In this document: one piece after another, positions 2,800-46,229 of the stretch
Layout: each line of letters begins with the position of its first letter
How positions within the stretch are numbered: the first letter of the stretch is position 1
DNA from: an uncultured bacterium
Lineage (GTDB): Bacteria > Bacillota_I > Bacilli_A > RF39 > UBA660
Assembly (NCBI GenBank): GCA_946611605.1
Contig: CAMODU010000002.1
Span: forward strand, 1 to 52,158
Direction: 5' to 3'
Length of the DNA: 52,158 nucleotides
Position numbers and translations under genes: made by a program
The notes under the pieces: generated by a model
What the model was told of the DNA's origin: nothing
What the model saw: the letters and a program-made list of their open reading frames with translations, nothing else
Databases searched by the model: none

Positions 2800-2895
2800 G
2801 TGTATATTTACATTTAAATAGTCAAATAATATTTATATATAAAATTATATAATTTATAATTAATATAGGTAAAACTAAGAAAGGAAGAGAGAAAA

Positions 2896-3486
2896 ATGAA
2901 AAAGAAAAGTGGAATGAGATCAGGAATAGTAGTATTAGTATTATTACTAGCAGTAGGTTTCGCTGCAGTTACTACTCAATTAGTAATTAACGGAACTATT
3001 AACATAGGAGCAAACTCAGCTGATTTTCAACAAAACGTAATCTTCAAAAGTGCTACTCATACTGGAGCTACACAATTAGATGGTGAAACAGCTGGTACTG
3101 CAACTATCTCTGCTGATGGTAAATCAATTACTTATAGTACTCAAGTATTAGATAATATTGGCGAAACTGCAACATTAACTTATACTATCCAAAATAATTC
3201 ACAATATGGTGCTTCATTAGGACAATTAAAATGTTCTTGGGGATCAACATACGATGAATCAACTGCAGCTGCTTCATTAACTGACAATGAATATGTTAAT
3301 GTAGTTGCTACAAACGGATTAAATGGTACTACTTTAGCTAAAGGTGCTGTTACTGATACAACTAATATATCTGCAGCAGATACTGTAGTTGTAACTCAAA
3401 AGAAATCTTATGCTGGTGATGCAACTAATACATCACATACTTATACTTTCACTTGCCAAATGACTGCTACTGCAACAGAAGCATAA
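2896..3486 (+). CDS. Small secreted protein (196 aa), the stand-alone copy of a roughly 160-aa N-terminal module; candidate substrate of the adjacent SipW-type peptidase
   Basis: RBS is AAAGGAAGAGAG. The N-terminus MKKKSGMRSGIVVLVLLLAVGFA|AVTTQLVING has a basic n-region, an h-region and small residues at -3/-1 (G-F-A). The mature part is Thr/Ala/Asn-rich and looks beta-rich (ATLTYTIQNNSQYG, HTYTFTCQMT). It aligns along its whole length with residues 1-166 of the 30059 protein and 1-162 of the 38518 protein. Confidence 0.8.
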   Translation: MKKKSGMRSGIVVLVLLLAVGFAAVTTQLVINGTINIGANSADFQQNVIFKSATHTGATQLDGETAGTATISADGKSITYSTQVLDNIGETATLTYTIQNNSQYGASLGQLKCSWGSTYDESTAAASLTDNEYVNVVATNGLNGTTLAKGAVTDTTNISAADTVVVTQKKSYAGDATNTSHTYTFTCQMTATATEA

Positions 3487-3551
3487 TTTGAAAAAGTAGA
3501 GTAATAAAATTCATTTTAAATATAAATATTCATATAGAAAGGTGATAATAT

Positions 3552-4685
3552 ATGAAGAATATTTCTAAGATATTGTTAAATATTATTCTTATTATCACCT
3601 TATCTATTAATATTTTTAATAAGTTATATGATAATAAGATAGTTATAATAGCTTTATTAATATATTTAGGTATAAGCTATGCAATGAATGGATATAGAAG
3701 ACCTAATAAAAGAGATTTACTAACTACAACATTAGTAATATTCTTAGGTACTTTTTTAACTATATCATCATTCTATTTCATGGGTACATTTTCAGAATTT
3801 AGTAGAAATTACTCATTTATTTTTTATAAATATCTTAAACCATCAATATGGATAAGTGTATTTATAATTGTAATATTAACTGAAATTATTAGATATATAA
3901 CTTGTACAGGCCCTAAAGGGAGTAAATTAACTACAAGAATTACATATATAAGTCTATTTATTATATTCTTATTATTAGACTTATGTTTATCTAAGAAAGT
4001 CTTAAATGTAAGTAGTTTTAATAATATGTATGAGTTCTTTGCACTTACTTTATGTGCGAGTCTTACTAAGAATATATTTTTAATGTGGGTAACACGTAAA
4101 AACGGTTATATGCCATGTTTATTGTATAGACTGATAATAGATTTATATGTGTACTTTTTGCCTATTACGCCAAAGGCTAATATGCTTATTCAAGCATGTA
4201 TGTTTATGTTATTACCATTTATATTATATAAGGTAATAGATGGGTTAAAAGTCGAAAGAGAAATGCCTAAAGCATCAGATATAAGAAAGAGAAGCTGGGA
4301 TCGTATAGAAACAGTTATCTTATTAATTATATTTATTATACTTGCAGGTTTAGTATCAAGAGAATTTAAATATTCTATGATAGCTGTTGGATCTGGAAGT
4401 ATGACAGGTACAGTTAATAAAGGTGATGCTATTATATATGAAAGATATAATGGGCAAATATTACATGAAGGCGATATTATTGTATTTAAGATAGATAATA
4501 CATTAATAGTACATAGAATCTACAAGAAATTCTTCCTTGGTGATGAATATGCATACATGACTAAGGGTGATGCAAACCAATCAGTTGATAATTGGATTGT
4601 AGAAAGTAATATGGTTGTTGGTCAAGTTAAAAAAAGAGTTAAATATATAGCATGGCCATCAGTATGGATAAACGAAAATTATTAA
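3552..4685 (+). CDS. Fusion protein: roughly 8-TM N-terminal membrane domain plus a C-terminal ER/archaeal-type (SipW-like) signal peptidase I domain
   Basis: RBS is AAAGGTGAT. Residues 1-230 are almost entirely hydrophobic helices. A basic loop (KVEREMPKASDIRKRSWDR) and an anchor helix (ETVILLIIFIILAGLVS) follow. The catalytic domain has AVGSGSMTGTVNKGDAIIY, GDIIVFK, LIVHRI and MTKGDANQSVD. These match the SGSM(E)P / HR / TKGD(N)N boxes of B. subtilis SipW (Ser-His type). Confidence 0.85.
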   Translation: MKNISKILLNIILIITLSINIFNKLYDNKIVIIALLIYLGISYAMNGYRRPNKRDLLTTTLVIFLGTFLTISSFYFMGTFSEFSRNYSFIFYKYLKPSIWISVFIIVILTEIIRYITCTGPKGSKLTTRITYISLFIIFLLLDLCLSKKVLNVSSFNNMYEFFALTLCASLTKNIFLMWVTRKNGYMPCLLYRLIIDLYVYFLPITPKANMLIQACMFMLLPFILYKVIDGLKVEREMPKASDIRKRSWDRIETVILLIIFIILAGLVSREFKYSMIAVGSGSMTGTVNKGDAIIYERYNGQILHEGDIIVFKIDNTLIVHRIYKKFFLGDEYAYMTKGDANQSVDNWIVESNMVVGQVKKRVKYIAWPSVWINENY

Positions 4686-4707
4686 GATATTAGAAAGGGA
4701 TGTTTAT

Positions 4708-5928
4708 ATGAGGGAACGTAATGTTGAACTTCCTTTACTTAAAGGCAAACCAAAAGAAAAATATATTCCAATGAGTGTTGTAATTGGAGTAATAGTTTTC
4801 TTAGCACTAGTATTAGTTGCTTCTTTTGCATTTACTTTTAAGGGAACATATAAAGTTCATTATTCGGAAAAATCTAACATAGATTATAAAGTATATTTAA
4901 AGGAGAATTCAGATTATCCTGAGAAATACTTAGGTAAAAATAGAAGATATATTGCATCTTTAATTAAGAATATTGATACTGACTTCGATTATACATTTAA
5001 GATTGATGAAAAGATTGATCTTAAATATACATATTATGTTGTAGCTAAATTAGAGGTAAATGATTCTCAAGGTACTAACATATTTGAAAAAGAAGAATTA
5101 TTAACTTCTAAGAAGTCTAACAATACTGATAAAGATACTTTCAAAGTTCATGAAGATGTTCAAATTGACTATGCTAAGTTTAATGCTATGGCTACTGAAT
5201 TTATAGATAAATATAAGTTAACAGCAAATAGTAAATTAACTGTATCATTAATAGTTGATGTTGAAGGAAAACATACAGACTTTGATAAACAATTATCTGA
5301 TAAAGAAGTTATTAGTTTAAACATTCCATTAACAGAAAAGACAATTGATATTGAAATGGATTATAATTTAACTAATTCAGTAGATCAAACATTACAACAA
5401 AGATCTACAATATTAAATAATAAACCATTATTATTCATAACAATATTTATATCATTTATTGATATATTTGCAATTATATATGTTATTTACTGGGTAGTAG
5501 TAAATAGAAGCCCTGAAACATTATATAATAAGAAATTAGATAAGATATTAAAAGATTATAATAGATACATATCTGAAACTATCATAACTGAAAGAGTTGA
5601 AGATATGATGGTTACTAGATCATTAAGAATTGAAGTAATTAAGAAGTTCGAAGATTTATTAGATATAAGAGATTCATTAAATAAACCAATCTTATATCAT
5701 GAAGAAAGACCTAATCAAGAAGCAGTATTCTACATCTTAACTGATAGAATAGGTTACTTATATGTAATGAGAGCTGAAGATTTTGTGAAGAAATCTAAGA
5801 AAGCTAAAAATGAAGAAGTTGTAGAAGAAAAGAAAGTTGTTAAAAAAGAAGAATTAATAGCTGATCCTGTTATTGAGGTTAAAAAGAAAAGATCTAGACA
5901 TCAAAATAAAGATAGATTTAGAAAATAA
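4708..5928 (+). CDS. Two-TM membrane protein of unknown function (extracytoplasmic roughly 190-aa domain between the TMs, cytoplasmic C-domain with a Lys-rich tail); third gene of the peptidase cassette
   Basis: RBS is GAAAGGGA, 22 nt after the peptidase stop. TM1 is IPMSVVIGVIVFLALVLVASFAFTF and TM2 is LLFITIFISFIDIFAIIYVIYWVVV. The C-terminal tail is KKSKKAKNEEVVEEKKVVKKEE...KKKRSRHQNKDRFRK. I recognise no catalytic motif. Confidence 0.75.
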   Translation: MRERNVELPLLKGKPKEKYIPMSVVIGVIVFLALVLVASFAFTFKGTYKVHYSEKSNIDYKVYLKENSDYPEKYLGKNRRYIASLIKNIDTDFDYTFKIDEKIDLKYTYYVVAKLEVNDSQGTNIFEKEELLTSKKSNNTDKDTFKVHEDVQIDYAKFNAMATEFIDKYKLTANSKLTVSLIVDVEGKHTDFDKQLSDKEVISLNIPLTEKTIDIEMDYNLTNSVDQTLQQRSTILNNKPLLFITIFISFIDIFAIIYVIYWVVVNRSPETLYNKKLDKILKDYNRYISETIITERVEDMMVTRSLRIEVIKKFEDLLDIRDSLNKPILYHEERPNQEAVFYILTDRIGYLYVMRAEDFVKKSKKAKNEEVVEEKKVVKKEELIADPVIEVKKKRSRHQNKDRFRK

Positions 5929-5957
5929 AAAATAGTAGTTTAACTACTATTTTTTTA
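5926..5957. terminator. Bidirectional intrinsic terminator between convergent genes
   Basis: AATAGTAG (5931-5938) pairs with CTACTATT (5944-5951). An A-run lies on the left and a T7 run on the right. It overlaps the stop codons of both flanking genes. Confidence 0.75.
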
Positions 5958-6273
5958 TTTCATCAGCATATCTTTTTAATGCTCTAGAATCATTTCCAAA
6001 TATTATTTTTATTTGATTATCTACTTCTACAATACCTTTAGCTCCAAGTTTTTGTATTCCGTCTTTATCTACTAAAGATACATCTTTAAGTGTTACCTTA
6101 AATCTAGACATATTAGCTTCAGCATCTAGTATGTTGTCTTTGCCTCCTAAATACTTAACTAATTTATTAATTTCTAATCCAAAATCTTTTCTTGATAATT
6201 TAACTATTATAAATGAAATTATAATTAATACTAATGCTATAATGCCATATTGCATTATTGTTTGCCATTCCAT
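5947..6273 (-). CDS. Membrane-anchored PTS EIIB(Glc)-like domain protein lacking the phospho-cysteine
   Basis: RBS is AGGAGAT. An N-terminal TM (IMQYGIIALVLIIISFIIV) is followed by LGGKDNILDAEANMSRFKVTLKDVSLVDKDGIQKLGAKGIVEVDNQIKIIFGNDS. This aligns with E. coli IIB(Glc) [50 protein letters not shown]. The active-site Cys position is Asn. Confidence 0.75.
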   Translation of the reverse strand: MEWQTIMQYGIIALVLIIISFIIVKLSRKDFGLEINKLVKYLGGKDNILDAEANMSRFKVTLKDVSLVDKDGIQKLGAKGIVEVDNQIKIIFGNDSRALKRYADEIKK

Positions 6274-7137: not shown

Positions 7138-8490
7138 ATGAAGTGTTCATTATGTGGAACTGATTTAATACCAGGCAATAATATATGTCCTTCATGTGGT
7201 TCATTAAACATGACTTTTGAACAAAGTGCTCCTGCAGCAAATACAACAGTAAATACATCCGCTATGTCAGAAGAGAATGGTCAAGTTGTTCAAGATGAAC
7301 AAGTAAATATAAATGTACAACCATTACAAGAAGTTCAAGAAGAACAACCTGTATTGGAATCTACTAGAGTAGCTGAAGCTCCTCCTGTAGCTGTAGAAGA
7401 ATTAACTAATCCAATTCAAGAAGAAATGGATACTGCAAAAGATATAAGTGAAACTTCTATGCCTACACAAGAAACTGTAGCAGCTGATACTCCAGAAGTA
7501 ATAGAAGAATATGAAGATTTAGATGAAGGAGAAGCTGAAGTAGTTAATGCTACTGCAGATATGGCTGCACCAGAACTTGCAGTAGAACAAGAAAATTTAT
7601 CTGAAGGTGTAAGAGATATATCTTCTTCTCAAGATGTATCTACATATGATCCTAATCAAGTTGTAGAAGAACAAGAAACTCAAGAAGTTAATAAAGAAGC
7701 AGGAGTAAATTTTCAATTACCTGAAGTAAAAGAAGCAGAGAAAGATACTCAAGGAATGGGTATCATGGAAATTGAAACAATTAGTAAAACAGCTGGTCAA
7801 GAAGGATTACCTGTTAGAGAAAAATTCTCTTTAAAGATATTAAAAAAGAAAACCATACCTAGAAATTTAGTAATTATATTATTAGTTGTATTCTTAGCTA
7901 TAGGTGTATTAATAGGAAGTACTATGTTTGGTAAACAAGTATATACTCCTACAACTACAAAGAAACAAGTTGATAAGATACCTCATGTAGTTGATGGTAA
8001 GAATAATGTTACTTATGCTGGTAAGTTTATATATAAGATACCTCAAGAATATGACTATGATAAATCTGAAGGTGGAATAGTTATATATGGTAAATCAGAT
8101 GAATTTAAAATATCTATAAAAGCCATGCAAGGTTCATATAATTATATAGCTAATGCTAAAGAGAGTATTATTAAAAGTTTAGGTAATGTAGATGTAATTG
8201 TTAATAATATTAAAGAAGAAATATTTAATGAAGTAAAATATATAGTTATTGAATCTACTGTAGGACCTAGAAATAGATTATATACTATAAGAGATGGAAT
8301 AAATGATTATGTATTCTATGCTGAAATAATTAGTAGTGATAACTCATATAATTATGATGCTATTGATATTGTTAATGATATTGTTGAAAATGTTGAATAT
8401 CAAGAAAAATATCCAACAATGGAAGGTGTAGCTTCACAAGATGTAGCGAAGATGATTGTTACTGCATCTGAAGCACATAATAATTCTTGA
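7138..8490 (+). CDS. Zinc-ribbon membrane protein of unknown function
   Basis: RBS is AAAGGGTG. The N-terminus has CSLCG...CPSCG (zinc ribbon), then a long acidic E/Q/V-rich linker, a single TM (LVIILLVVFLAIGVLIGSTMF) and a roughly 185-aa extracytoplasmic domain. It ends in tandem stops TGA TAA. Confidence 0.7.
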   Translation: MKCSLCGTDLIPGNNICPSCGSLNMTFEQSAPAANTTVNTSAMSEENGQVVQDEQVNINVQPLQEVQEEQPVLESTRVAEAPPVAVEELTNPIQEEMDTAKDISETSMPTQETVAADTPEVIEEYEDLDEGEAEVVNATADMAAPELAVEQENLSEGVRDISSSQDVSTYDPNQVVEEQETQEVNKEAGVNFQLPEVKEAEKDTQGMGIMEIETISKTAGQEGLPVREKFSLKILKKKTIPRNLVIILLVVFLAIGVLIGSTMFGKQVYTPTTTKKQVDKIPHVVDGKNNVTYAGKFIYKIPQEYDYDKSEGGIVIYGKSDEFKISIKAMQGSYNYIANAKESIIKSLGNVDVIVNNIKEEIFNEVKYIVIESTVGPRNRLYTIRDGINDYVFYAEIISSDNSYNYDAIDIVNDIVENVEYQEKYPTMEGVASQDVAKMIVTASEAHNNS

Positions 8491-12974: not shown

Positions 12975-14750
12975 ATGAATAAAAATAAATATTTATTAGT
13001 ATTTATTCTTTTACTATGCCTAATTCCTAATGTAGCTAAAGCTACTGATTGGTGTGTTATCAATGGTACAACTGTTAGAGTAAGAGATGCTGCATCTACT
13101 TCAGGTAATAAATTAGGAACATATAATACAGGAGATAAGTTTGTATTAAAGACTAGACAAATATTTGCTGATAAAGGTGGAGGATGCGAATCAGGATATT
13201 GGTATCAAATAGATCATAATGGTGCAACTGGCTATGTTTGTACTGCATTTGCAATTATAGAATCTGATACACCTGTAGTTATTACTGATGAAGCAAAAAC
13301 ACAATGCGAATCTGAATTAAAATCTAAAGGCTTCCCTCAAGTATATTGGAACGCTTTATGTAATTTAAAAGCTAAATATCCAAATTGGGAATTTAATGCT
13401 ATAGATACTTTAATAGACTTTCCTTCTGCAGTAGCTGGTGAATCTTGTAAAGGCTCTATACGTGCATCTGAAACTAATATAAACAAAGGATTTACAGATT
13501 CTACATGTGGAAAAAAATATGATACAGGGTATACTGGAGCGTCATCTACTGCTACAGCATATTATATGAACCCTTTAAACTTCTTAAACGAAAAGAATAT
13601 TTTTATGTTTGAATCAAATTATACAAATAATAATCTATTAGGATATTATGCTAATGCATCGAAAAGTATAATATCTCCTTCAACTTATTTTGTTCAGTTT
13701 ATTCCAAATGTATATACTTATATAGCTAATGCGTCTAATGCGTCTAATGTGGCAGCTTCTGCTATATCTGCTCGTATAAAACAAGAAATGGGAAGTGGAG
13801 ATTTAGGAAAAACAGTAGCTCCAGATAATACAAGATTGTTTTCATGCTTGTCTGGTAATTATTCGACTAGATATCCAAATACTGTAGCTTCAATAGGTGA
13901 TGTGAATAATTATTATAATTTCTTTAATATAGCTGCAACCGATGGTTCGGATGTCACACAAAAAGCATTAATATATGCTAGAAATCATGGCTGGGGCGGA
14001 ACTGGTAATCAAGACAATGATAGACAAACAGCTGTAACAGGTGGTGCTCAGTGGATTTATAAATGGTATACAAATGCAGGCCAACAGACTATTTATTTTA
14101 ATAAATTTAATGTTAATCCTAAATCGTCGTCATCTAAATTTTCTCATCAATACATGACAAATGTGGATGCTCCATCCTCAGAATCTATACTTGTTTATAA
14201 TGGTTATTCAAGTTCAGGTGCTTTATCTGCTAATCACATATTTTATATTCCAGTATATAGTAATTTAGATGCTTCTATAAATAATACTCCAGGTGGTGCT
14301 ACAGGTGATACTAATAACTCTAATACAGGATTACAACCTTCAACAATGGTTGTATCTGCTGGTTTGAATATATCTGGTTCTGCTGTATTTGGAATTAAAA
14401 GTAATACGTCTATAGTTGATTTAAAAGGTAGAATACAATCTCAAGGTGGTACAATTAATATTTATTCCGGTAATAATTTAATAAATGATGGTATAGTTGG
14501 AACAGGCATGGTAATGAAAATTGCATCATCAACTGGTAATGCCGAATATTCTATTGTAATTAAAGGCGATACCTCAGGTGATGGGTTGGTTAATGCGTTG
14601 GATTTACTACAAATAAAAAAATCAATACTTGGGCAGAAAAAAATAGAAGGCGTTTATTATGCGGCTGCTGACACATCAAGTGATGGTACGGTTAATGCTT
14701 TAGATTTATTACAAGTTAAAAAGAGCTTATTAGGACAAAAGGAGTTGTAG
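12975..14750 (+). CDS. Secreted SH3b + glucosaminidase(GH73)-like peptidoglycan hydrolase with a C-terminal type-I dockerin
   Basis: Signal peptide is MNKNKYLLVFILLLCLIPNVAKA. The SH3b-like segment is VRVRDAASTSGNKLGTYNTGDKFVL...GYWYQIDHNGATGYV. GH73-like boxes are IKQEMGSG, NNYYNFFNI, GAQWIY and SHQYMTN. The C-terminal duplicated dockerin segment is GDTSGDGLVNALDLLQIKKSILG ... ADTSSDGTVNALDLLQVKKSLLG (nt 14565-14747). Confidence 0.7.
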   Translation: MNKNKYLLVFILLLCLIPNVAKATDWCVINGTTVRVRDAASTSGNKLGTYNTGDKFVLKTRQIFADKGGGCESGYWYQIDHNGATGYVCTAFAIIESDTPVVITDEAKTQCESELKSKGFPQVYWNALCNLKAKYPNWEFNAIDTLIDFPSAVAGESCKGSIRASETNINKGFTDSTCGKKYDTGYTGASSTATAYYMNPLNFLNEKNIFMFESNYTNNNLLGYYANASKSIISPSTYFVQFIPNVYTYIANASNASNVAASAISARIKQEMGSGDLGKTVAPDNTRLFSCLSGNYSTRYPNTVASIGDVNNYYNFFNIAATDGSDVTQKALIYARNHGWGGTGNQDNDRQTAVTGGAQWIYKWYTNAGQQTIYFNKFNVNPKSSSSKFSHQYMTNVDAPSSESILVYNGYSSSGALSANHIFYIPVYSNLDASINNTPGGATGDTNNSNTGLQPSTMVVSAGLNISGSAVFGIKSNTSIVDLKGRIQSQGGTINIYSGNNLINDGIVGTGMVMKIASSTGNAEYSIVIKGDTSGDGLVNALDLLQIKKSILGQKKIEGVYYAAADTSSDGTVNALDLLQVKKSLLGQKEL

Positions 14751-14753
14751 AAT

Positions 14754-16382
14754 GTGAAGAATTTAAAGAGATTAATAATATTAATGTTATTAATAATACC
14801 AGGTATAGCTTCAGCTGCATCTAGTAGTATATCTGTTAGTTCAGCAAATACAGGTGTTGTTGGTAACAATTTAAATGTAACTGTTACGGTATCTTCGTCA
14901 GCACCTTTAGGTTCATGGCAATTTACTGTATCATATGATAGAAGTTATTTAACATTAAGTAGTGTAAGTAATACAGATGATTGTGGAACTAGTGCAAACT
15001 GTGCTGGTAATGCTAATAATAGTTCTACTAAATCAAAATCCTATAATTTTACTTTTAAAGTGTTGAAATCAGGATCATCTACAATTAGAATAACATCAGC
15101 AGATGTATTTGGTTGGGATGAAAATAGAATGTCAGTTAATAATGGTTCTAGAACTATTACTTGTAAAACTCAAGCAGAAATTGAAGCATCATATTCTCCA
15201 AATGCATATCTTAAATCTATTACAGTAGGTGATTATACATTAGATCCTGCATTTGATAAAGAAACTAAAGAATATAATGTAGAAGTACCAAATGATGTAG
15301 AAAAGGTAACTGTATCAGCTACTAAAGAAGATGGAAATGCTACAATAACTGGTACAGGTGAAAAAGAATTACAAGAAGGAAATAATAAAATTGAAATAGT
15401 ATGTACTGCTCAAAAGGGAAATAGTTTAACATATATAGTTAATATTAATAGAAAAGAATTAAATCCTATTAAAGTAACTATAGATGGTAAAGAATTTGGT
15501 ATTGTTAGAAAGAAAGATTTATTACCTGAATTAATAGGTTTTAGTGAAGATACTACAACATATGAAGATACTGAAATACCTGCTTTATATAATGATGATT
15601 TAACATATAAATTAATAGGTGTTAAAGATGATGAAGGTAATGTATATACTTATCTTTATGATGAAGGTGCTAAAACTATAAGAGGTAGATATATTCAATT
15701 ATTATCTGGTGATTTAGCAATTACTCCTGGTAACTTTAATGAAAAGATTAAAGGATTTGAAACTAAGGAATTAGATTTAGATGGATTTAAAGTAGCATCT
15801 GTTGCTATATCAGATAAACAATATATTATAAAGGGTATTAATCTAGTTACTAAAGAAGAAGGAACTTATTTATATGATGTAGATACTAAGATGTTTATAC
15901 CATTTGATTTAACTAACATTTATAATATAAATAAAAAGATTAAAGTATATAAAATAGTTATTATTCTTTTCTGTGTAATAGTTCTTCTATTAGCAGGTTT
16001 AAATATTTTTAAGAAAGATAATAAGAAAGATAAAAAGAAGAAACCTATAATAGATGAATTTAAAGAAATTGAACCTGAAGAAATAAAAGTAGAAGAAATA
16101 AAAGAAGAACCTAAAGAAGAATTAAAGGTTGAAGAAGAAACTATTTCTTTAGATGATGAAGAAGATAAGAAGAAAAAGAAAAAAGAAGATAAGAGAAAGA
16201 AGAAAGCAGAAAAGAAAAGATTAAAAGAATTAGAAAGAGAAGAACAAGAGGAAGAAGTTGTTGAAGAAGAAGTTAAGGAAGAAAAGGTAGTCGATGATGA
16301 TGAAGTAGATGATCCTTTAAATGATGAAGATGATTTCATGGACTTCTGGGAAACAATGGAAATCAAAAAGATAAAGAAATAG
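14754..16382 (+). CDS. Membrane-anchored protein: cohesin-like domain, cadherin-like beta-sandwich domain, TM, highly charged cytoplasmic tail
   Basis: GTG start lies 3 nt after the upstream stop, with AAGGAG 9 nt upstream. Signal peptide is LIILMLLIIPGIASA. The cohesin-like segment is NLNVTVTVSSSAPLGSWQFTVSYDRSYLTLSSV...YNFTFKVLKSGSSTIRITS. The cadherin-like module is YLKSITVGDYTLDPAFDKETKEYNVEVPNDVEKVTVSA...YIVNINR. The TM is IVIILFCVIVLLLAGLNIF (residues 401-418), followed by a 124-aa K/E/D tail. Confidence 0.65.
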   Translation: MKNLKRLIILMLLIIPGIASAASSSISVSSANTGVVGNNLNVTVTVSSSAPLGSWQFTVSYDRSYLTLSSVSNTDDCGTSANCAGNANNSSTKSKSYNFTFKVLKSGSSTIRITSADVFGWDENRMSVNNGSRTITCKTQAEIEASYSPNAYLKSITVGDYTLDPAFDKETKEYNVEVPNDVEKVTVSATKEDGNATITGTGEKELQEGNNKIEIVCTAQKGNSLTYIVNINRKELNPIKVTIDGKEFGIVRKKDLLPELIGFSEDTTTYEDTEIPALYNDDLTYKLIGVKDDEGNVYTYLYDEGAKTIRGRYIQLLSGDLAITPGNFNEKIKGFETKELDLDGFKVASVAISDKQYIIKGINLVTKEEGTYLYDVDTKMFIPFDLTNIYNINKKIKVYKIVIILFCVIVLLLAGLNIFKKDNKKDKKKKPIIDEFKEIEPEEIKVEEIKEEPKEELKVEEETISLDDEEDKKKKKKEDKRKKKAEKKRLKELEREEQEEEVVEEEVKEEKVVDDDEVDDPLNDEDDFMDFWETMEIKKIKK

Positions 16383-30058: not shown

Positions 30059-33000
30059 ATGAACAAGCATTTGAGAGCGGGTTTGCTTGTATTAGTTTTG
30101 TTTTTATCAATAGGGTTTGCTACAGTTACAACAAACCTATTTATGAATTCTAATGCAACAATCGCATATAACCAAAATGATTTTCAAGTTATATTTACTA
30201 AAGCTGTGGCTAATAAAGAAGGAACAGCTTCTATTTCTGATGACGGAAAATCTATTACATATACTACACATGAACTTGTTGAATTAAATGATCAATCAAT
30301 ATTAGATTATAAAATAACTAATAATTCATCTCAATATGATGCAGATATAAATATATCAGTTAAAGTATATGATGAAAACAATAATGAAATAGATCTTAAT
30401 GAATATTTTACTATTGAAGAAACAATTCAACCTACTAATACTTTAGAAGCAAGAACATCTACTGATGGTCAATTAACTGTTACTTTAACTAAACAACCAA
30501 CAGAATCTCATACTTATAGATTTGAAATAGTATATGATATTGATACAATTGAAAGAGCATCAGCTGCTGATGGGACTGTTATTCCTAATGGAATAGAGGT
30601 AACATTTGATGCTAATGGTGGAGTAGCTTTAGATAATAATACTAAGATGGTTATGTATGATGCTTTATATGGTGATCTACCTGAAACTACTGCTGTTAAT
30701 TTAGCTTTTGAAGGATGGTATACAGATCCTGTAGCAGGTGAAAAAGTTACAGCTGATACTGTAGTATCAAATGCTGAACCTCATACATTATATGCACATT
30801 ATACAGATCCTGTAGCTGTATACAATACATATGGATACAATACATTACAAAAAGCTATTAATGCAGTACCAAAGAATGGTATAGAATCTACTGTAGATTT
30901 GTTAAAAAGTAGTAATGAAGATGTAAATGTATTTAGTAATCAAAACATTATATTAAATATGAATAATAATACCTTAACTAATACTGATATAGAAGGTACA
31001 TATTTATTTACTAATGAAGGAGAATTAACTGTTAATAACGGAATTATTAATGCATCAACTAGAGGTATTAATAATAGTAATAAATTAATATTAGAAAACA
31101 TGACTATTGATACTTCTTTAGTTGCTATATATAATGCAGCTGATTCAAATTTAAATATTAAATCAGGAAGTTATAATAGTGGCCAAAATAGTGTTATAAA
31201 TGATGGTGTTGTTTCGATTAATGGCGGTAATTTTACTAATAGTGGGGGGACATATCCAATTATCTTTAATTATGCAACATTAGATTTTAATGATGGTACA
31301 CTTAATTCTACTATTAGTAGAGGATTGTATACGTCTGCTACTGGAACTACTAATATAACTGGTGGAACAATAACTGGTGAAACAACTGCTAAAAATTTAG
31401 TTTATAATATGGGTGTAACTAATATAAGTGGTGGTAATATTACAGCTGGTTCTTCTGGCTCATATACCGTATTTAATGGAACTACTGGAACTATGACAGT
31501 TTCAGGTGGTTCATATAGCAACACTAATGCTACTATATTTATGAATCAAGGAACTATGGATGTTTTACCAACAACTGTGATTGAAAATTCTCCTAAAACT
31601 ATTTTTGCTGCTAATGGTAGTAGTGCAAAAACAACAATTAAAGGTGGTACATATAGTGCAAGTTCATCAATTATTTATCCACAAGGATCATCTACTGTAA
31701 TTGTTGAAGATGGTACATATACATCATCTACAAATGTTGCAAATTGTAATGGTGGTAATTTGACAATTGAAGGTGGAAATTTTACTGCCACAGCATCTAA
31801 TTATCCTGGTGTTGTACAACAAGCTAATGGATCAATAACTATTAATGGTGGAACAATTAATACTCAATCATATGCTTTGTGGGCAAAAGGTAAAATTACT
31901 CTTAATGGAGGAACAGTAAAATCTGAAAAGAATTATACTGTTAATGTAGAGTCGACTGGTACATTTGAATTTAATGGAGGTACTCTTGAAGCAACTTCAA
32001 CCTCAAGCGTTATGATTAACTCCAATGGTATTACTAACATAAATGGAGGAAACTTTAATTATGTTGATAATGGTAAAATAGCTATTATAAATAGAGCAAC
32101 TGGAACAATGACTATTAATGAAGGTGCAGATATAACTATTGATGATACTAATGCTTTATATAATTATGGAACATTTAATTTAAACGGTGGTACAATTAGT
32201 ACAAATAATAATTATCCAGTAATTACTACTCAAAGTGGTGGTACTACTAATATAAATAGTGGAACTATTAATGGTAATAGTACTAATGCTATTGTTAATA
32301 CTGCTGGTACAACTAATATAAAAGGTGGGTCAATCAATTCTAATACTTCCTCAGCTATTGATGTAAAAGCTGATACAGTTAATATTACTGGAGGAACAAT
32401 TTCATCAACTCGTACTGGTATTTATGCTGAAGGTGGAACTACAAATATATCTGGTGGAACTATTACTAGCTCAGAAAGTAATGCTATTAGTTCTTCAGCA
32501 GGATCTACAGTTAATGTGTCTGGTGGGCAAATAACAAATGAGTCTACTTCAGCTGTCGTATATAATAAAGGTACAACAACTATAACTGGTGGTTCAATTA
32601 ATAGTGAAACCGCTTATCATACAATATATAATGAAGCTGATTCATTACTTAATATTAAGGATAATGCCGACATTAAATCGGTTAACAATACCGCTGTGAC
32701 AAATTATGGAACAGTCATGATGTATGGCGGAAATTTATATTCTAGTTCTGACACAAAAGTAACATTCTCTCAAGGTAATACAGGTGGATTAATAATGTCT
32801 GGTGGTACTATAACAACTAAAAAAGGTAATGCTATTAATATATTAGAAGGTGGAGCTGCCAATATAACTGGTGGACTTGCATCAAGTGAGGAAACTGGTA
32901 CAGCACCTGTTATTTATTCATCAGGAACACTTACAATATCCGATAGTCCTACTATTTCATCTTTAGGAAATAATAGATTAATAACCATATCAAGTACTGG

Positions 33001-43798: not shown

Positions 43799-43904
43799 AT
43801 AACGCAATTCAAGGGGATTTGGTTGATTATTGGTAATTTTAAGGGGTTGAAATTATTGTTAATTATATTTCTTTGAATTAAAAGAATAAAAGGGTGTGGT
43901 TGAT

Positions 43905-45521
43905 ATGATAGAATCTAAACAATCTATGGTATCAAGAAATTCTAATCATAATCCTGAAGTTAAGAAACAACTCAAAGAAATTAAGAAATTACAAAAAGAA
44001 TTAGAACAAAAGAAAAAGGACTATGAAAAGAAAGTGGCTAAAGACAAAGAGAGAACTCTTAAAGTCATAGCTGCAAAAGAAGCTCAAGTAACTAAAGAAA
44101 AGCTTAGAAGAAGAAAAGAACTATCTAAAAAGATAGAAGCTAAACTTAAAGAAGAAGCTAAAGAAAGAAAGTTACAAGAGAAGAAAGCAATTAAAGAATC
44201 ATTGATTCAAGAAAAAGCAAGATTAAAAGAAGCTCAAGAAAAAGCAAGATTAGCTGAAGCTTATAAAAGACAAAAAGAAGCTGAAGAAATCAAAAAGGCT
44301 AAATTACTTGAAGCAGAAAGAAAACATATCTTAGCTGAACAAGCTAAACAAGAAAGATATGAACAAAGACTTGCGAACAAAGAAGCTAGAAGATTAAAAG
44401 TAATAGCTGCTAAAGAATCAAGATATAAGAAAATGATTGCTGGTAAGGATTTCTTGAAAGGTAAGATTAAGAATCTTAAAGTATATGCCAAAAAGGCAGC
44501 TGTTGTTGGATTACTAGCAGGTTCTATAGTTTTAGTTTATAAATCTAATATTATTCCAAATACTATATCAGATCTTAAACAAAAGAAACTAATAGAACAA
44601 TCAATCGAGGATAATAAGGAATCTGAAATTGAGATGACAGTACAACCTGTTGAACCAATTGAAGAGAAAGTCGAAGAAGAGGAAGAAGAAATAGAAGTTG
44701 AGGTTGAACAACCACATGAAATTATTTCAACTGAATTATACGACGATGGATTTGAATTTGACGAAACTGTCACACCAGAAATGTTAAATACAATTAATCC
44801 GATATTATCCGATAACACATGTTGGATTTGTATACCTGGTACAAACATCAATTATCCAGTAGTACATCCAAGTATTAATAACATTGACCAAGTCGAAGGT
44901 TTAAGAAGTGATATTGAAAAATCAAATTTAGATGATGATGTCTATATGAATCAATATTTCTTACGTAAAAACTTAACTGGAGACAAGTCATCAGATGGAA
45001 CTTTATTCTTAGACATTTATAATAATACTTTAAATCGTCCTAGTGGTGAATTAAGTGATATGAATGTTATATATGGTCATAAGATGAAATCAGGTGCAAT
45101 GTTTAGTGATTTACACAAATGGAAATACGATGCAACAGGAACTTACAATGCTGAACATCCATATGGTATTATCTATACCAATGATGGATATGGTTATAAA
45201 GTAACATTTATAACTTCTAGATTAATATCTGGAGAATCTAACTCTATATTACATTTGAATAACTTTGAAAGTTATGAAGAAAAATGTGAATATATACAAT
45301 CAATAATGGATGAAGCCAAAGAAAATGGATGGTTCACATTAGATGATTATTCAGTTGAAGAAGACGATAAATTCCTAAGTTTAATCGCTTGTTCGTATGA
45401 AGCTGATAATATGAGATATCAATTAATTGGTGTCTTAGATAAAATCAAAGTAAGAGATACAAATTTAGCTTATAATGAAAATGGCTATTATGTAGAAGAA
45501 AGTTCTACATTACATAGATAG
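43905..45521 (+). CDS. Class-B-like sortase with a roughly 195-aa Lys/Glu-rich cytoplasmic N-terminal extension
   Basis: ORF track gives 43896, a GTG inside GGGTGTGG; ATG 43905 is preferred. About 195 aa of K/E/A coiled-coil-like sequence contain the internal repeat R(T/R)LKVIAAKE(A/S). The TM is AAVVGLLAGSIVLVY and an acidic linker follows. The sortase domain has CWICIPGTNINYPVV, DGTLFLD, NVIYGHKMKSGAMFSDL (His), LSLIACS (Cys) and NMRYQLIG (Arg). Confidence 0.8.
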   Translation: MIESKQSMVSRNSNHNPEVKKQLKEIKKLQKELEQKKKDYEKKVAKDKERTLKVIAAKEAQVTKEKLRRRKELSKKIEAKLKEEAKERKLQEKKAIKESLIQEKARLKEAQEKARLAEAYKRQKEAEEIKKAKLLEAERKHILAEQAKQERYEQRLANKEARRLKVIAAKESRYKKMIAGKDFLKGKIKNLKVYAKKAAVVGLLAGSIVLVYKSNIIPNTISDLKQKKLIEQSIEDNKESEIEMTVQPVEPIEEKVEEEEEEIEVEVEQPHEIISTELYDDGFEFDETVTPEMLNTINPILSDNTCWICIPGTNINYPVVHPSINNIDQVEGLRSDIEKSNLDDDVYMNQYFLRKNLTGDKSSDGTLFLDIYNNTLNRPSGELSDMNVIYGHKMKSGAMFSDLHKWKYDATGTYNAEHPYGIIYTNDGYGYKVTFITSRLISGESNSILHLNNFESYEEKCEYIQSIMDEAKENGWFTLDDYSVEEDDKFLSLIACSYEADNMRYQLIGVLDKIKVRDTNLAYNENGYYVEESSTLHR

Positions 45522-45539: not shown

Positions 45540-46229
45540 ATGAAAGCTAAGAAGAATTTAAGATTATTATTGGGAGCATTAACTATGGGTATTGCATTAA
45601 CTACAGCAAATCCAATAGTAGCTCACGCAGAATTAGTTGATGAAACTAATGAATGGACTCAAGAAGGAGAAACACATTACGAAGATATCAGTCAATCAGA
45701 GAATGAACAACATACTGCTGATAATGTTCAAAACCAAAATAATGGTGGAGAAACTCCAGCACCACAAAATGCTAATGCAGTAGTTGATAATTCACAAGGT
45801 GGCAATCCACCTTCAACAACACCTGATACACCATCAGGAACTGGTTCAACTGGTAATGCTGATCCAACACAAGGAGAAGTTACAAATTGGGAAGATTATG
45901 ATCCTACAACTGATCCAACTTGGAATCCAATTGATCCAAGATTACCAGATGGTTTACCAGATGAAGTAGATAAGAAATCTTATCCAGATAATCCAGATCA
46001 TCCAGATAATCCAGACCATCCAAATAATCCAGAAACTCCAACTAATACTACAACTACAACAACAGTACCTGTAAACACTTTAGTAGTTAAGGAACAAGAA
46101 ATACCTCATACTGGTGTACCAGTTGCTGAAGGTGCTGCTACTGTTGCAGGTTTAGCTGGTATCATGGCTGGATTAAAGAAGATTATTTCTTCAAGAAGAA
46201 AATTTAAAACTGCAAGTAAAAATAAATAA
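45540..46229 (+). CDS. Cell-wall-anchored surface protein with a variant sorting signal IPHTG
   Basis: RBS is AGAGGGAG, 18 nt after the sortase stop. The signal peptide is ...TTANPIVAHA. The body is Pro/Asn/Asp/Thr-rich and low complexity. The C-terminus reads KEQE-IPHTG-VPVAEGAATVAGLAGIMAGL-KKIISSRRKFK, which is motif, hydrophobic stretch and basic tail. IPHTG is at nt 46101-46115. Confidence 0.8.
   Translation: MKAKKNLRLLLGALTMGIALTTANPIVAHAELVDETNEWTQEGETHYEDISQSENEQHTADNVQNQNNGGETPAPQNANAVVDNSQGGNPPSTTPDTPSGTGSTGNADPTQGEVTNWEDYDPTTDPTWNPIDPRLPDGLPDEVDKKSYPDNPDHPDNPDHPNNPETPTNTTTTTTVPVNTLVVKEQEIPHTGVPVAEGAATVAGLAGIMAGLKKIISSRRKFKTASKNK
45987..46040 (+). repeat. 3 x 18-bp in-frame tandem repeat
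   Basis: The units are GATAATCCAGATCATCCA / GATAATCCAGACCATCCA / AATAATCCAGAAACTCCA, encoding DNPDHP DNPDHP NNPETP. Confidence 0.9.

Follow-up and report, generated by a model that had tools for sequence, protein, structure and literature searches.

The 52,158-nucleotide (nt) stretch of DNA analysed here, which comes from contig CAMODU010000002.1 of an uncultured bacterium and is referred to below as the window, carries near its beginning a cassette of three genes, which we call g1, g2 and g3. They encode a small secreted protein, a signal peptidase fused to a polytopic membrane domain and a protein with two transmembrane (TM) segments, and we consider them as a candidate system for the maturation of surface proteins. 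The genes and the transcription signals around them are as follows.

Positions 2896-3486, forward strand: g1, 196 amino acids (aa), small secreted protein
Positions 3552-4685, forward strand: g2, 377 aa, polytopic signal peptidase fusion
Positions 4708-5928, forward strand: g3, 406 aa, two-TM DUF5305-related protein
Positions 5926-5957, no single strand: AT-rich bidirectional intrinsic terminator common to g3 and the convergent EIIB-like gene, from folding compared with shuffles
Positions 2832-2860, forward strand: promoter-like site TTTATA-17-TATAAT upstream of g1, weak evidence only

The three genes lie on the same strand, with spacers of 65 nt between g1 and g2 and 22 nt between g2 and g3, and a purine-rich Shine-Dalgarno sequence precedes the start of each (g1, AAAGGAAG; g2, GAAAGGTG; g3, GAAAGGGA). 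Shuffled versions of the two spacers fold as well as the spacers themselves (z of -0.16 and -0.85 respectively). The hairpin at 5922-5962 is far more stable (-11.5 kcal/mol, z -5.4, equalled by 0 of 200 shuffles) and, judged from its fold and the A-run and T-run on its sides, can serve as a bidirectional terminator; the generic terminator scan overlooked it because its stem holds fewer than three G-C pairs. The original prediction, made from the bare sequence, had described just this arrangement of closely spaced genes with their own Shine-Dalgarno sequences and a closing bidirectional terminator, and the open reading frames and the folding of the spacers and hairpin agree with it. The gene upstream of g1 is glf (UDP-galactopyranose mutase), which ends in its own terminator-like hairpin and T-run at 2770-2800, so that the cassette is a separate unit and g1 needs a promoter of its own. 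Matches such as the promoter-like site listed above are not enriched in this AT-rich DNA, with 41 found against 54.7 expected from shuffles. Given the close spacing, the structureless spacers and the terminators on either side, g1-g2-g3 looks like one transcription unit. The window has a G+C content of about 27% and is uniform in composition, and the cassette sits among the core genes glf, tyrS and rpsD. An origin as a mobile element or island was rejected on the grounds of the uniform composition, the core-gene flanks and the presence of the same flanks in relatives at 79-85% identity.

For comparison we assembled related loci, 2 from species-representative genomes and 27 from metagenomes, and searched them with profiles of g1, g2 and g3. 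The gene for g1 lies directly upstream of that for g2 in 25 of the 26 related loci with upstream sequence, the exception, L027, being a fragmented contig, and g3 is directly downstream of g2 in every related locus with downstream sequence. Strand and order are kept while the identity of g2 falls from 85% to 36% over roughly a dozen distinct lineages, and the genes next to the cassette vary between lineages. The related loci were recovered from the human gut, the rumen and the caecum of rodents, under source names such as 'Bacilli bacterium', 'Erysipelotrichales bacterium' and 'uncultured Bacillales'. Even in a distant cassette (L030, 6185-9407), where g2 scores 262 bits against the profile and g3 is 36% identical, the g1-g2-g3 order is the same. 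A comparison of gene neighbourhoods had been proposed with the original prediction, and its result, conservation of order and strand in all evaluable loci but the fragmented one, is in favour of it. Because the synteny is kept, chance adjacency of the three genes is excluded, and the view that they form a functional cassette is supported. In addition, one contig (L013, 9798-11127) contains a second, divergent g1-like gene (AYA|IYGTDVNIDG), followed by its own g2-like polytopic peptidase gene. This argues that substrate and peptidase travel as a pair, and the second pair indicates co-duplicated paralogous cassettes in one genome. A g1-like paralogue of 168 aa was also seen in one lineage, directly downstream of g3 (L002, 8299-8805). 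It has a different hydrophobic N-terminus without the GFA/AVTTTL motif of g1 described below, and may serve as a cap or anchor subunit that stays uncleaved.

The features of g2 were defined from an AlphaFold2 (AF2) model, hydropathy, alignment of 57 homologues and profile searches.

Positions 3552-4253, forward strand: N-terminal polytopic domain, aa 1-234, about eight TM helices (AF2 model, hydropathy, alignment)
Positions 4254-4685, forward strand: basic cytoplasmic loop, TM9 and extracellular signal peptidase I domain of the endoplasmic reticulum (ER)/archaeal type (TIGR02228 and SEC11 match)
Putative catalytic residues within the latter: Ser283 (SGSM), His321 and Asp340/Asp346 (invariance and SEC11 alignment)

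Residues 255-367 of g2 score 74.9 bits against TIGR02228, the model for archaeal-type signal peptidase I (curated cutoff 51.85), and g2 scores 33.2 bits against Peptidase_S26 (PF10502, cutoff 22.9). The catalytic domain is similar to human SEC11C/A both in sequence (E 2e-11 for the profile of the 57 homologues against the PDB) and in fold, SEC11C/A being the best structural matches of the AF2 model (E 3.5e-5). Its second-best fold match is the Streptococcus pyogenes pilus-assembly factor SipA (PDB 4N31, E 4e-4). The motifs SGSM (S283), H321-R322 and TKGDAN, or more generally TKGDxNxxxDNW (D340, D346), are invariant in the 57 homologues, and the SGSM, HR and GD motifs align with those of SEC11, which places g2 with the enzymes that use Ser and His, rather than Lys, together with Asp residues. 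Since the Ser, His and Asp residues are invariant the enzyme should be active, and we regard g2 as a signal peptidase that should be catalytically competent. The presence of this domain at the C-terminus of g2 had been predicted from its motifs, as had the extra polytopic domain in front of it, and both are borne out: in the AF2 model (predicted local distance difference test, pLDDT, 81) nine long helices precede the catalytic domain and a short helix follows at the C-terminus. With its basic loops at 47-55, 119-124, 185-186 and 235-250 the model fits a topology with the N-terminus inside, and by the positive-inside rule its catalytic domain is predicted to lie outside the cell.

Within the polytopic domain the intramembrane residues E111, R114, S170 and N174 are invariant among the 57 homologues and K173 is nearly so (at least 90%); P207 and N210 in an extracellular loop are also invariant. 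Scanning the same homologues against Pfam at E up to 10 gave nothing consistent for this domain and no CPBP/Abi match. Its lone fold match, the CAAX protease Rce1 (E 0.48, TM-score 0.31/0.41), was too weak to use and was set aside. In Bacillus, SipW matures TasA and TapA and is encoded with them in the tapA-sipW-tasA operon. The match of g2 to the SipW equivalog model NF046067 reaches 51.3 bits against a cutoff of 190, so that g2 is no SipW equivalog, and it does not have the short SipW-like architecture either, the SipW model spanning 189 positions where g2 has nine helices before its catalytic domain.

The third protein has the following layout.

Positions 4708-5928, forward strand: g3, cytoplasmic N-tail; TM1, aa 24-42; extracellular region, aa 43-241; TM2, aa 242-260; cytoplasmic region, aa 261-406, with a K/E-rich tail

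Hydropathy places about 200 aa between the two TM segments and about 145 aa after TM2, with basic cytoplasmic flanks, in keeping with the two-TM protein with a cytoplasmic domain that had been described at the outset. The g3 of the window itself has no Pfam match, including PF17231, at E up to 1, whereas 34 of 47 aligned homologues, which are 31-78% identical to g3, match DUF5305 (PF17231, best E 1.1e-17), and some of them carry the NCBI name DUF5305. Because the homologues match the family and the window protein does not, the assignment rests on transitive homology, by which g3 would be a divergent DUF5305 (TafG-like) protein. The succession of TM segment, extracellular region, TM segment and cytoplasmic region, and the position directly 3' of the signal peptidase gene, correspond to the published description of DUF5305 proteins (bioRxiv 10.64898/2026.01.04.697558). 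No match was found for the g3 profile among PDB sequences, those of signal peptidase complex subunits included. The original prediction had cast g3 as a membrane assembly or anchoring partner. A pilin-like anchor was considered and rejected, as an hhalign comparison of g1 with g3 matches the TM segments only; and since DUF5305 has been published as a proposed signal-peptidase accessory, a role of this kind is more likely for g3 than one in anchoring a fibre.

The small protein g1 can be divided into three parts.

Positions 2896-2964, forward strand: signal peptide, aa 1-23, with a basic n-region, an h-region of about 10-12 residues and G21-F22-A23 at -3 to -1 (predicted cleavage site)
Positions 2965-3015, forward strand: conserved N-terminal strand, aa 24-40, AVTTQLVINGTINIGAN (candidate donor strand)
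Positions 3016-3486, forward strand: beta-sandwich domain, aa 41-196, with the Cys113/Cys187 pair and an N100-x-S-x-Y motif (AF2 and alignment)

The signal peptide had been predicted to end in G-F-A, and these three residues are invariant across 66 relatives of g1. The segment directly after them, AVTTTLxINGTIxIGAN, is the best-conserved stretch of the family, and F44, F50, N100, Y104, C113 and C187 are likewise invariant in the same 66 proteins, as is the N100-x-S-x-Y motif. Hydrophobic residues of the strand alternate at mature positions +2, +6, +8, +12 and +14, with a glycine at +10. The AF2 model of g1 (pLDDT 82, about 90 in the core) is an eight-strand beta-sandwich formed by residues 48-193, and the N-terminal strand (residues 26-40) is left unplaced in the monomer, with a pLDDT from below 50 to about 60. 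This agrees with the earlier description of the mature part as rich in beta structure and in T, A and N; its composition is rich in T, A, N, S and G, and it is acidic, with a pI of 4.3 and 8.1% Asp plus Glu. Two asparagines in conserved positions stand in sequons of the form N-x-T/N-x-S, N32-G33-T34 (2989-2997) and N100-N101-S102 (3193-3201). In its hydropathy the segment from residue 11 to 29 scores as TM-like. The n-region, MKKKSGMRSG, has no RR (twin-arginine) motif. A class III (prepilin-type) signal peptide was also rejected, because the glycine before the hydrophobic stretch is not conserved and the invariant motif comes after the stretch.

The domain of g1 is not confined to small proteins. 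With an E limit of 1e-3, a search of its profile against 1.84 billion representative proteins yielded 2685 clusters (at 50% identity), many of them adhesin-like proteins of 300-900 aa; a limit of 1e-10 left 675. Among 250 such module proteins that were examined the module is at the extreme N-terminus in 247. Domains of the surface or adhesin type were seen in 60 long members, among them Flg_new, a glycine-rich domain, CarboxypepD_reg, DUF285, LRR_5, DUF6273, Laminin_G_3 and F5/8 type C. The motif [GAV]-F-A is present in 246 of the 250, with position -1 at median residue 21, and is followed by the consensus A-V-[TS]-T-T-L-x-I-N-G-[TN]-[IAV]-x-[IL]; in those 246, V (206) or I (36) occupies mature position +2, and T (233) position +4. 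A strict scan of 339 kb in six frames found GFA plus the strand motif only at the N-termini of module proteins. Exactly two cysteines are present in 226 of the 250 modules and the Cys113 and Cys187 columns covary. In a mutual-information analysis of 203 non-redundant modules this was the only informative coupling; the N-terminal strand is too conserved to covary, and no docking site could be derived for it for that reason.

Two large proteins of the window carry the module, a fact that the original prediction had overlooked.

Positions 30059-34159, forward strand: 1366-aa protein, g1-like module at aa 1 to about 150 (GFATVTTNL), g1 profile E 2.6e-30, likely trans substrate/tip adhesin
Positions 38509-41127, forward strand: 872-aa protein, N-terminal g1-like module (GFASVTTNL), g1 profile E 4e-23, likely trans substrate/tip adhesin

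In the 1366-aa protein the module is followed by a Listeria-Bacteroides repeat and then by long NISGG/NITGG beta-helix-like repeats, and in the 872-aa protein by BspA-type leucine-rich repeats (LRR_5, 5e-84). Elsewhere large module-bearing proteins are encoded directly beside the cassette (L006, L017, L024 and L025). The fraction of C-ending codons is 0.31 in g1, 0.22 in rpsD and 0.07-0.11 in the two large proteins, so that, of the genes compared and with small numbers, g1 has the strongest bias of the highly expressed kind and the two large proteins the weakest; this would fit one major subunit accompanied by minor subunits.

Known families do not account for g1. Searches against Pfam and NCBIfam gave no family, the sole NCBIfam match at E up to 1 being a chance one to ResA (12.5 bits), and g1 has no match to the SipW-cognate signal peptide model or to any other curated NCBIfam model. 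With 72 relatives added and E up to 10, Pfam again gave no consistent family, just scattered matches to Ig_3, SpaA_4 and Enas at noise level, and none to Peptidase_M73 (PF12389), the family of TasA and camelysin. There is no LPXTG motif or C-terminal TM segment in g1, which ends in ...TATATEA, and no sortase in the cassette. The profile searches that had been proposed with the original prediction have thus turned out in its favour for g2, which matches archaeal-type signal peptidase I, and against it for g1, for which no TasA, M73 or SipW-cognate match was obtained; for g3 they gave DUF5305 in homologues and no match in the window protein. As a family with no match in Pfam, NCBIfam or the PDB, the g1 domain looks new at the level of sequence. 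The proposal that g1 is the obvious cognate substrate of g2 fared better: the invariant GFA followed by a conserved strand, and the second substrate-peptidase pair on L013, argue for it.

We consider that the cassette serves the dedicated maturation of surface proteins that bear the module and assemble by strand donation, and put the probability of this at roughly 0.55; within it, dedicated maturation is the more secure part and polymerisation the less. According to this proposal Sec would export g1 and the large adhesin-like proteins that share its module, and these would be tethered briefly by the short signal peptide. The peptidase g2, probably in complex with g3, whose DUF5305 region would play the role that SPCS3 plays for SEC11, would cut after the invariant G-F-A and liberate the near-invariant amphipathic strand AVTTTLxINGTIxI. 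The liberated strand may then enter the disulfide-stabilised beta-sandwich of an adjacent subunit by donor-strand complementation. Repeated in this way, g1 would form a sortase-independent, chaperone-free fibre that grows from its base, and the big module-bearing proteins could plug in as tip or decorating adhesins, in the manner of TafC in the archaeal Tafi.

The Tafi of Haloarcula hispanica are composed of the Ig-like subunits TafA/E, with a tip protein, TafC, that combines a pilin-like N-domain with a laminin-G domain, an adhesin domain that faces outward; the adjacent signal peptidase TafD is needed for the processing of TafA, and TafG, a DUF5305 protein, is thought to act with TafD (PMC11821415, PMC12337348). 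Sec-dependent Tafi-like clusters are found in Thermococcales and Archaeoglobales, and assembly by strand donation is known from the Tafi pilus of Natrinema, whose structure was solved by electron cryo-microscopy, and has been modelled for the H. hispanica tafi (PMC11821415, PMC12337348). The cassette resembles these systems in that a small secreted subunit of 150-200 aa is encoded beside an ER/archaeal-type signal peptidase I and a DUF5305 protein. Like TafC, the large proteins of the window join the subunit-like module to other domains, here leucine-rich repeats or a beta-helix, and relatives carry Laminin_G_3. The signal peptide of g1 is of the Sec type, as in the Sec-dependent clusters, whereas that of Tafi proper is of the twin-arginine translocation (Tat) type. 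Further differences are the bacterial host, a core of three genes as opposed to five to seven, and adhesin genes scattered over the genome. The peptidases differ too, TafD having two extracellular domains and four TM helices, and g2 one extracellular domain and nine TM helices; neither a regulator (TafB) nor an anchor (TafF) gene was seen in the cassette; and g1 has no sequence match to DUF1102 or to any PDB chain. Strand donation, which has been solved or modelled for Tafi, is for g1 a suggestion from the conservation and spacing of its N-terminal strand.

A second group of relevant systems is that of AbpX, which in Pyrodictium abyssi is a two-cysteine subunit of 163 aa that assembles by donor-strand complementation and which has homologues in Bacillota and Chloroflexota (bioRxiv 10.64898/2026.01.04.697558). 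Archaeal and bacterial AbpX loci are reported to encode a dedicated signal peptidase I with ten TM helices, and the DUF5305 protein, a membrane-anchored beta-sandwich, has been proposed as an accessory of the peptidase that is reminiscent of the eukaryotic signal peptidase complex (bioRxiv 10.64898/2026.01.04.697558). In the literature DUF5305 is sometimes found fused to signal peptidase I (PMC11821415, PMC12337348, bioRxiv 10.64898/2026.01.04.697558). Mature g1, at about 173 aa, is similar to AbpX in size and in having a pair of cysteines, which in AbpX form a disulfide. If cleavage occurs after A23, its V2/L6/I8/G10/I12 have the same spacing as W2/L6/L8/A10/I12 of the AbpX donor strand. The nine TM helices and short C-terminal helix of g2 can be likened, by description only, to the ten-TM TIGR02228-type peptidase, and the DUF5305 accessory has the same two-TM layout in both; tip and minor subunits are also part of AbpX loci. 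The bacterial AbpX loci, on the other hand, are described with anchors of the SLH or LPXTG kind, with sortases and with regulators of the c-di-GMP or two-component kind; no such gene adjoins the cassette. It is by the description of AbpX that we set g1 apart from it, and in that description AbpX also has a pI of about 4 (4.3 for g1). The publication in 2025-26 of loci that combine DUF5305 or TafG proteins with a signal peptidase, which in the AbpX loci has ten TM helices, means that to call the cassette an undescribed system, as the original prediction did, overstates the case. The kind of system has been described in those papers, and the cassette is a variant of it in host-associated Bacilli with a three-gene core. 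Each element of the published architecture has its counterpart here, from the multi-TM ER-type peptidase and DUF5305 to the small beta-sandwich subunit with two cysteines and a conserved strand past the predicted cleavage site, and to adhesins that bear the domain of the subunit. By analogy, it would work like a system of the Tafi/AbpX/TasA type, with a substrate family that appears new in sequence.

An ER/archaeal-type peptidase encoded beside the gene for a fibre subunit is also a feature of the tapA-sipW-tasA and sipW-bsaA-bsaB-bsaC operons (PMC11580942, PMC7395162, PDB 8AUR). In the TasA and BsaA systems the strand that is exposed by cleavage is the donor strand, to which that of g1 would be a candidate counterpart. 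In the published model for BsaA of Clostridium perfringens the signal peptide keeps the subunit tethered up to the docking of the growing fibre, whereupon SipW cleaves, and the subunits are locked by an isopeptide bond between N35 and K74, with E56 catalysing (PMC11580942, PMC7395162). The cassette had been said not to be a copy of the Bacillus operon and this holds, for the Clostridium operon too: g2 falls short of the SipW model and has eight further helices in a domain of their own, no relationship of g1 to the TasA/camelysin family is detectable, there is no TapA, and a DUF5305 protein is present. N32 of g1, together with K76 (3121-3123) and the E/D residues at 89-90, recalls the N35/K74/E56 triad of BsaA; that these residues make a Lys-Asn isopeptide lock in g1 is pure speculation by analogy. 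Two further systems share elements with the cassette. In the eukaryotic signal peptidase complex (SEC11A/C, SPCS3; PDB 7P2P, 7P2Q) SEC11 is the closest solved match to the catalytic domain of g2; SEC11 differs from g2 in its single TM helix and its general substrates, and g3 has no sequence similarity to the subunits of the complex. The SipA/LepA-type factor of S. pyogenes (PDB 4N31) likewise has a signal-peptidase fold dedicated to surface-fibre assembly. SipA, however, is inactive and works with sortase-polymerised LPXTG pilins, whereas g2 keeps its Ser, His and Asp and g1 has no LPXTG.

Several observations weigh against our proposal. The cleavage site, the specificity of g2 for module proteins, the g2-g3 complex and the polymerisation are all things that we infer from sequence and by analogy. 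The description of g2 as dedicated is putative, with the signal peptidase I complement judged from 52 kb only, and no anchor or terminator subunit was identified in the window. A resemblance of g1 to TasA, which the original prediction had seen in one of its strands, is not apparent by other means, apart from the sub-threshold Peptidase_M73 match of the distant L030 relative given below, which we count in favour of the proposal. No match was obtained for the g1 family profile among PDB sequences at E up to 10, with TasA (8AUR/5OF1) in the library; hhalign of the g1 family against TasA, using a query sequence checked to be identical to that of PDB 8AUR, gave a probability of 1.8%; and the Foldseek search of the g1 model against the PDB returned generic beta-sandwiches, none at E below 0.05 (best 0.056), with no entry in the top 50 described as TasA, a bundling pilin or a Tafi pilin. 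The hallmarks of AbpX are missing from g1 as well: at +2 it has V or I where AbpX has an aromatic residue (the 'Trp clamp'), at +4 T where AbpX has an acidic one (calcium), and it contains 8% Asp/Glu as against about 15%. Finally, the 1366-aa and 872-aa proteins of the window lack both the Cys pair and the glycine of the strand (ING being replaced with MNS or VNA), unlike most large members, and may therefore dock differently from the stand-alone subunit.

A bolder form of the proposal, which we offer tentatively and hold to be doubtful as a whole, would see in the g1 module an unrecognised 'fibre handle' that is widespread among gut and rumen Bacilli, a pilin-like donor-strand domain whose sequence is unrelated to those of TasA, AbpX and the Tafi pilins. 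It would supply a sortase-free, chaperone-free fibre and at the same time a universal N-terminal plug for dozens of adhesins (leucine-rich repeat, beta-helix, Flg_new, DUF285 and lectin-like). Gating of assembly would fall to the nine-TM peptidase and the DUF5305 protein, as the equivalent in bacteria of the eukaryotic signal peptidase complex, with the polytopic domain recognising the invariant signal segment LLLAVGFA, and the isopeptide lock through N32, K76 and E/D 89-90 might perhaps be part of it too.

It might instead be that g2 and g3 are the housekeeping signal peptidase complex of a reduced low-GC lineage, and g1 an abundant secreted or coat protein that happens to be their neighbour, with no fibre involved. 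Other secreted proteins of the window have ordinary signal peptides of the AxA type, which need some signal peptidase I, and no LepB-type peptidase was seen in the 52 kb, a length that is far too short to call such an enzyme absent. The position of the cassette among core genes and its uniform composition would also suit a housekeeping function. A general peptidase does not, however, explain why GFA and the strand are near-invariant and, in the 339 kb scanned, confined to the N-termini of module proteins, or why L013 has two peptidase genes that each adjoin their own g1-like gene; and in the known systems SipW, TafD and the AbpX-associated peptidase are all dedicated. On balance we think this explanation unlikely.

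A further alternative is that the module does not polymerise and serves as a stalk or anchor. The strand would then dock to a partner in the membrane or wall, for example the extracellular domain of g3, or would remain a signal anchor, with the adhesins tethered singly and the stand-alone g1 acting as a filler or regulator. The constant N-terminal place of the module beside a membrane-spanning signal segment, the TM-like hydropathy of residues 11-29, the extracellular domain of about 200 aa that g3 has to offer and the missing anchor or terminator subunit all lend themselves to this interpretation. An h-region of about 10-12 residues with small invariant residues at -3 and -1 is, however, typical of cleaved signal peptides, and a dedicated peptidase makes little sense for an uncleaved anchor. 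The stand-alone g1 is moreover a conserved partner in the cassette, apparently highly expressed, which is a better fit to a polymer subunit, and the hhalign match between g1 and g3 is limited to TM segments. We judge a non-polymerising module to be rather improbable. That the cassette is a rearranged orthologue of tapA-sipW-tasA or sipW-bsaA, with g1 a true member of the TasA/camelysin family, is very improbable and largely refuted at the level of families, since the common type of the peptidase, the conserved xΦxΦxNxS strand of g1 that recalls FxFxNNGS of TasA and a sub-threshold Peptidase_M73 match in the distant L030 relative are set against a g2 score of 51 bits on a SipW equivalog with a cutoff of 190, nine TM helices, the lack of Peptidase_M73 in g1 and 72 relatives, no TasA match in the PDB, an hhalign probability of 1.8%, the absence of a TapA and the presence of a DUF5305 protein, which the Bacillus operon as published does not have. 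The L030 match is the top Pfam match of that g1-like protein (17.3 bits, E 0.0043) and covers its FEVINNGT strand. The same protein (E 1.9e-13 to the g1 profile) has AFA|SLSQTLNITGT at the predicted junction in addition to the FEVINNGT strand, and tyrS lies just downstream of its cassette, as it does near that of the window.

Were maturation and strand donation by the cassette to be confirmed, many uncultured Bacilli of the human gut and rumen would display adhesins through a fibre system that no annotation now recognises. The combination of TasA-like fibre, dedicated peptidase and DUF5305 protein would extend from archaea and a few Bacillota and Chloroflexota to host-associated bacteria, and the GFA/AVTTTLxINGT signature would let the adhesin repertoire of the lineage be predicted from metagenomes. 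With its three genes the system is compact, and useful for probing the roles of DUF5305 and of the polytopic peptidase domain.

Several other genes lie around the cassette. Just upstream of glf, at 118-1626 on the forward strand, is a gene for a Cys-rich protein of 502 aa, in which a signal peptide is followed by TM segments in the centre, with weak TrbL and ICE Mbov_0396-like matches, and by a low-complexity tail rich in Asn. Convergent with g3, at 5947-6273 on the reverse strand, is the gene for a 108-aa protein consisting of a stand-alone TM segment and a phosphotransferase system (PTS) EIIB-like domain. The 450-aa protein encoded at 7138-8490 on the forward strand comprises a zinc ribbon, an acidic linker, a TM segment and an extracellular domain without a family match. 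A scan of the window (1-52158) at Rfam gathering thresholds matched no RNA family, so that neither tyrS (8676) nor trpS (37401) has a T-box match upstream of it, unusually for Bacillota.

Other genes of the window, all on the forward strand, also appear to be concerned with surface display. The gene at 12975-14750 encodes a secreted SH3_3 protein that ends in a type I dockerin (PF00404, E 7e-14), and the adjacent gene at 14754-16382 a protein with a cohesin (PF00963, E 5.6e-7), a cadherin-like domain, a TM anchor and a K/E-rich tail; from their domains the two look like a cohesin-dockerin pair for surface display. At 43896-45521 is a gene for a protein of 541 aa whose long N-terminus is K/E-rich and coiled-coil-like and which also has a TM segment and a weak match to a sortase domain that stays below threshold (PF04203, E 5.8e-4), and next to it, at 45540-46229, one for a P/T/N-rich secreted protein of 229 aa that ends in IPHTG followed by a hydrophobic stretch and a basic tail. 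These are likely to be a sortase and its substrate, 38 kb from the cassette and separate from it.

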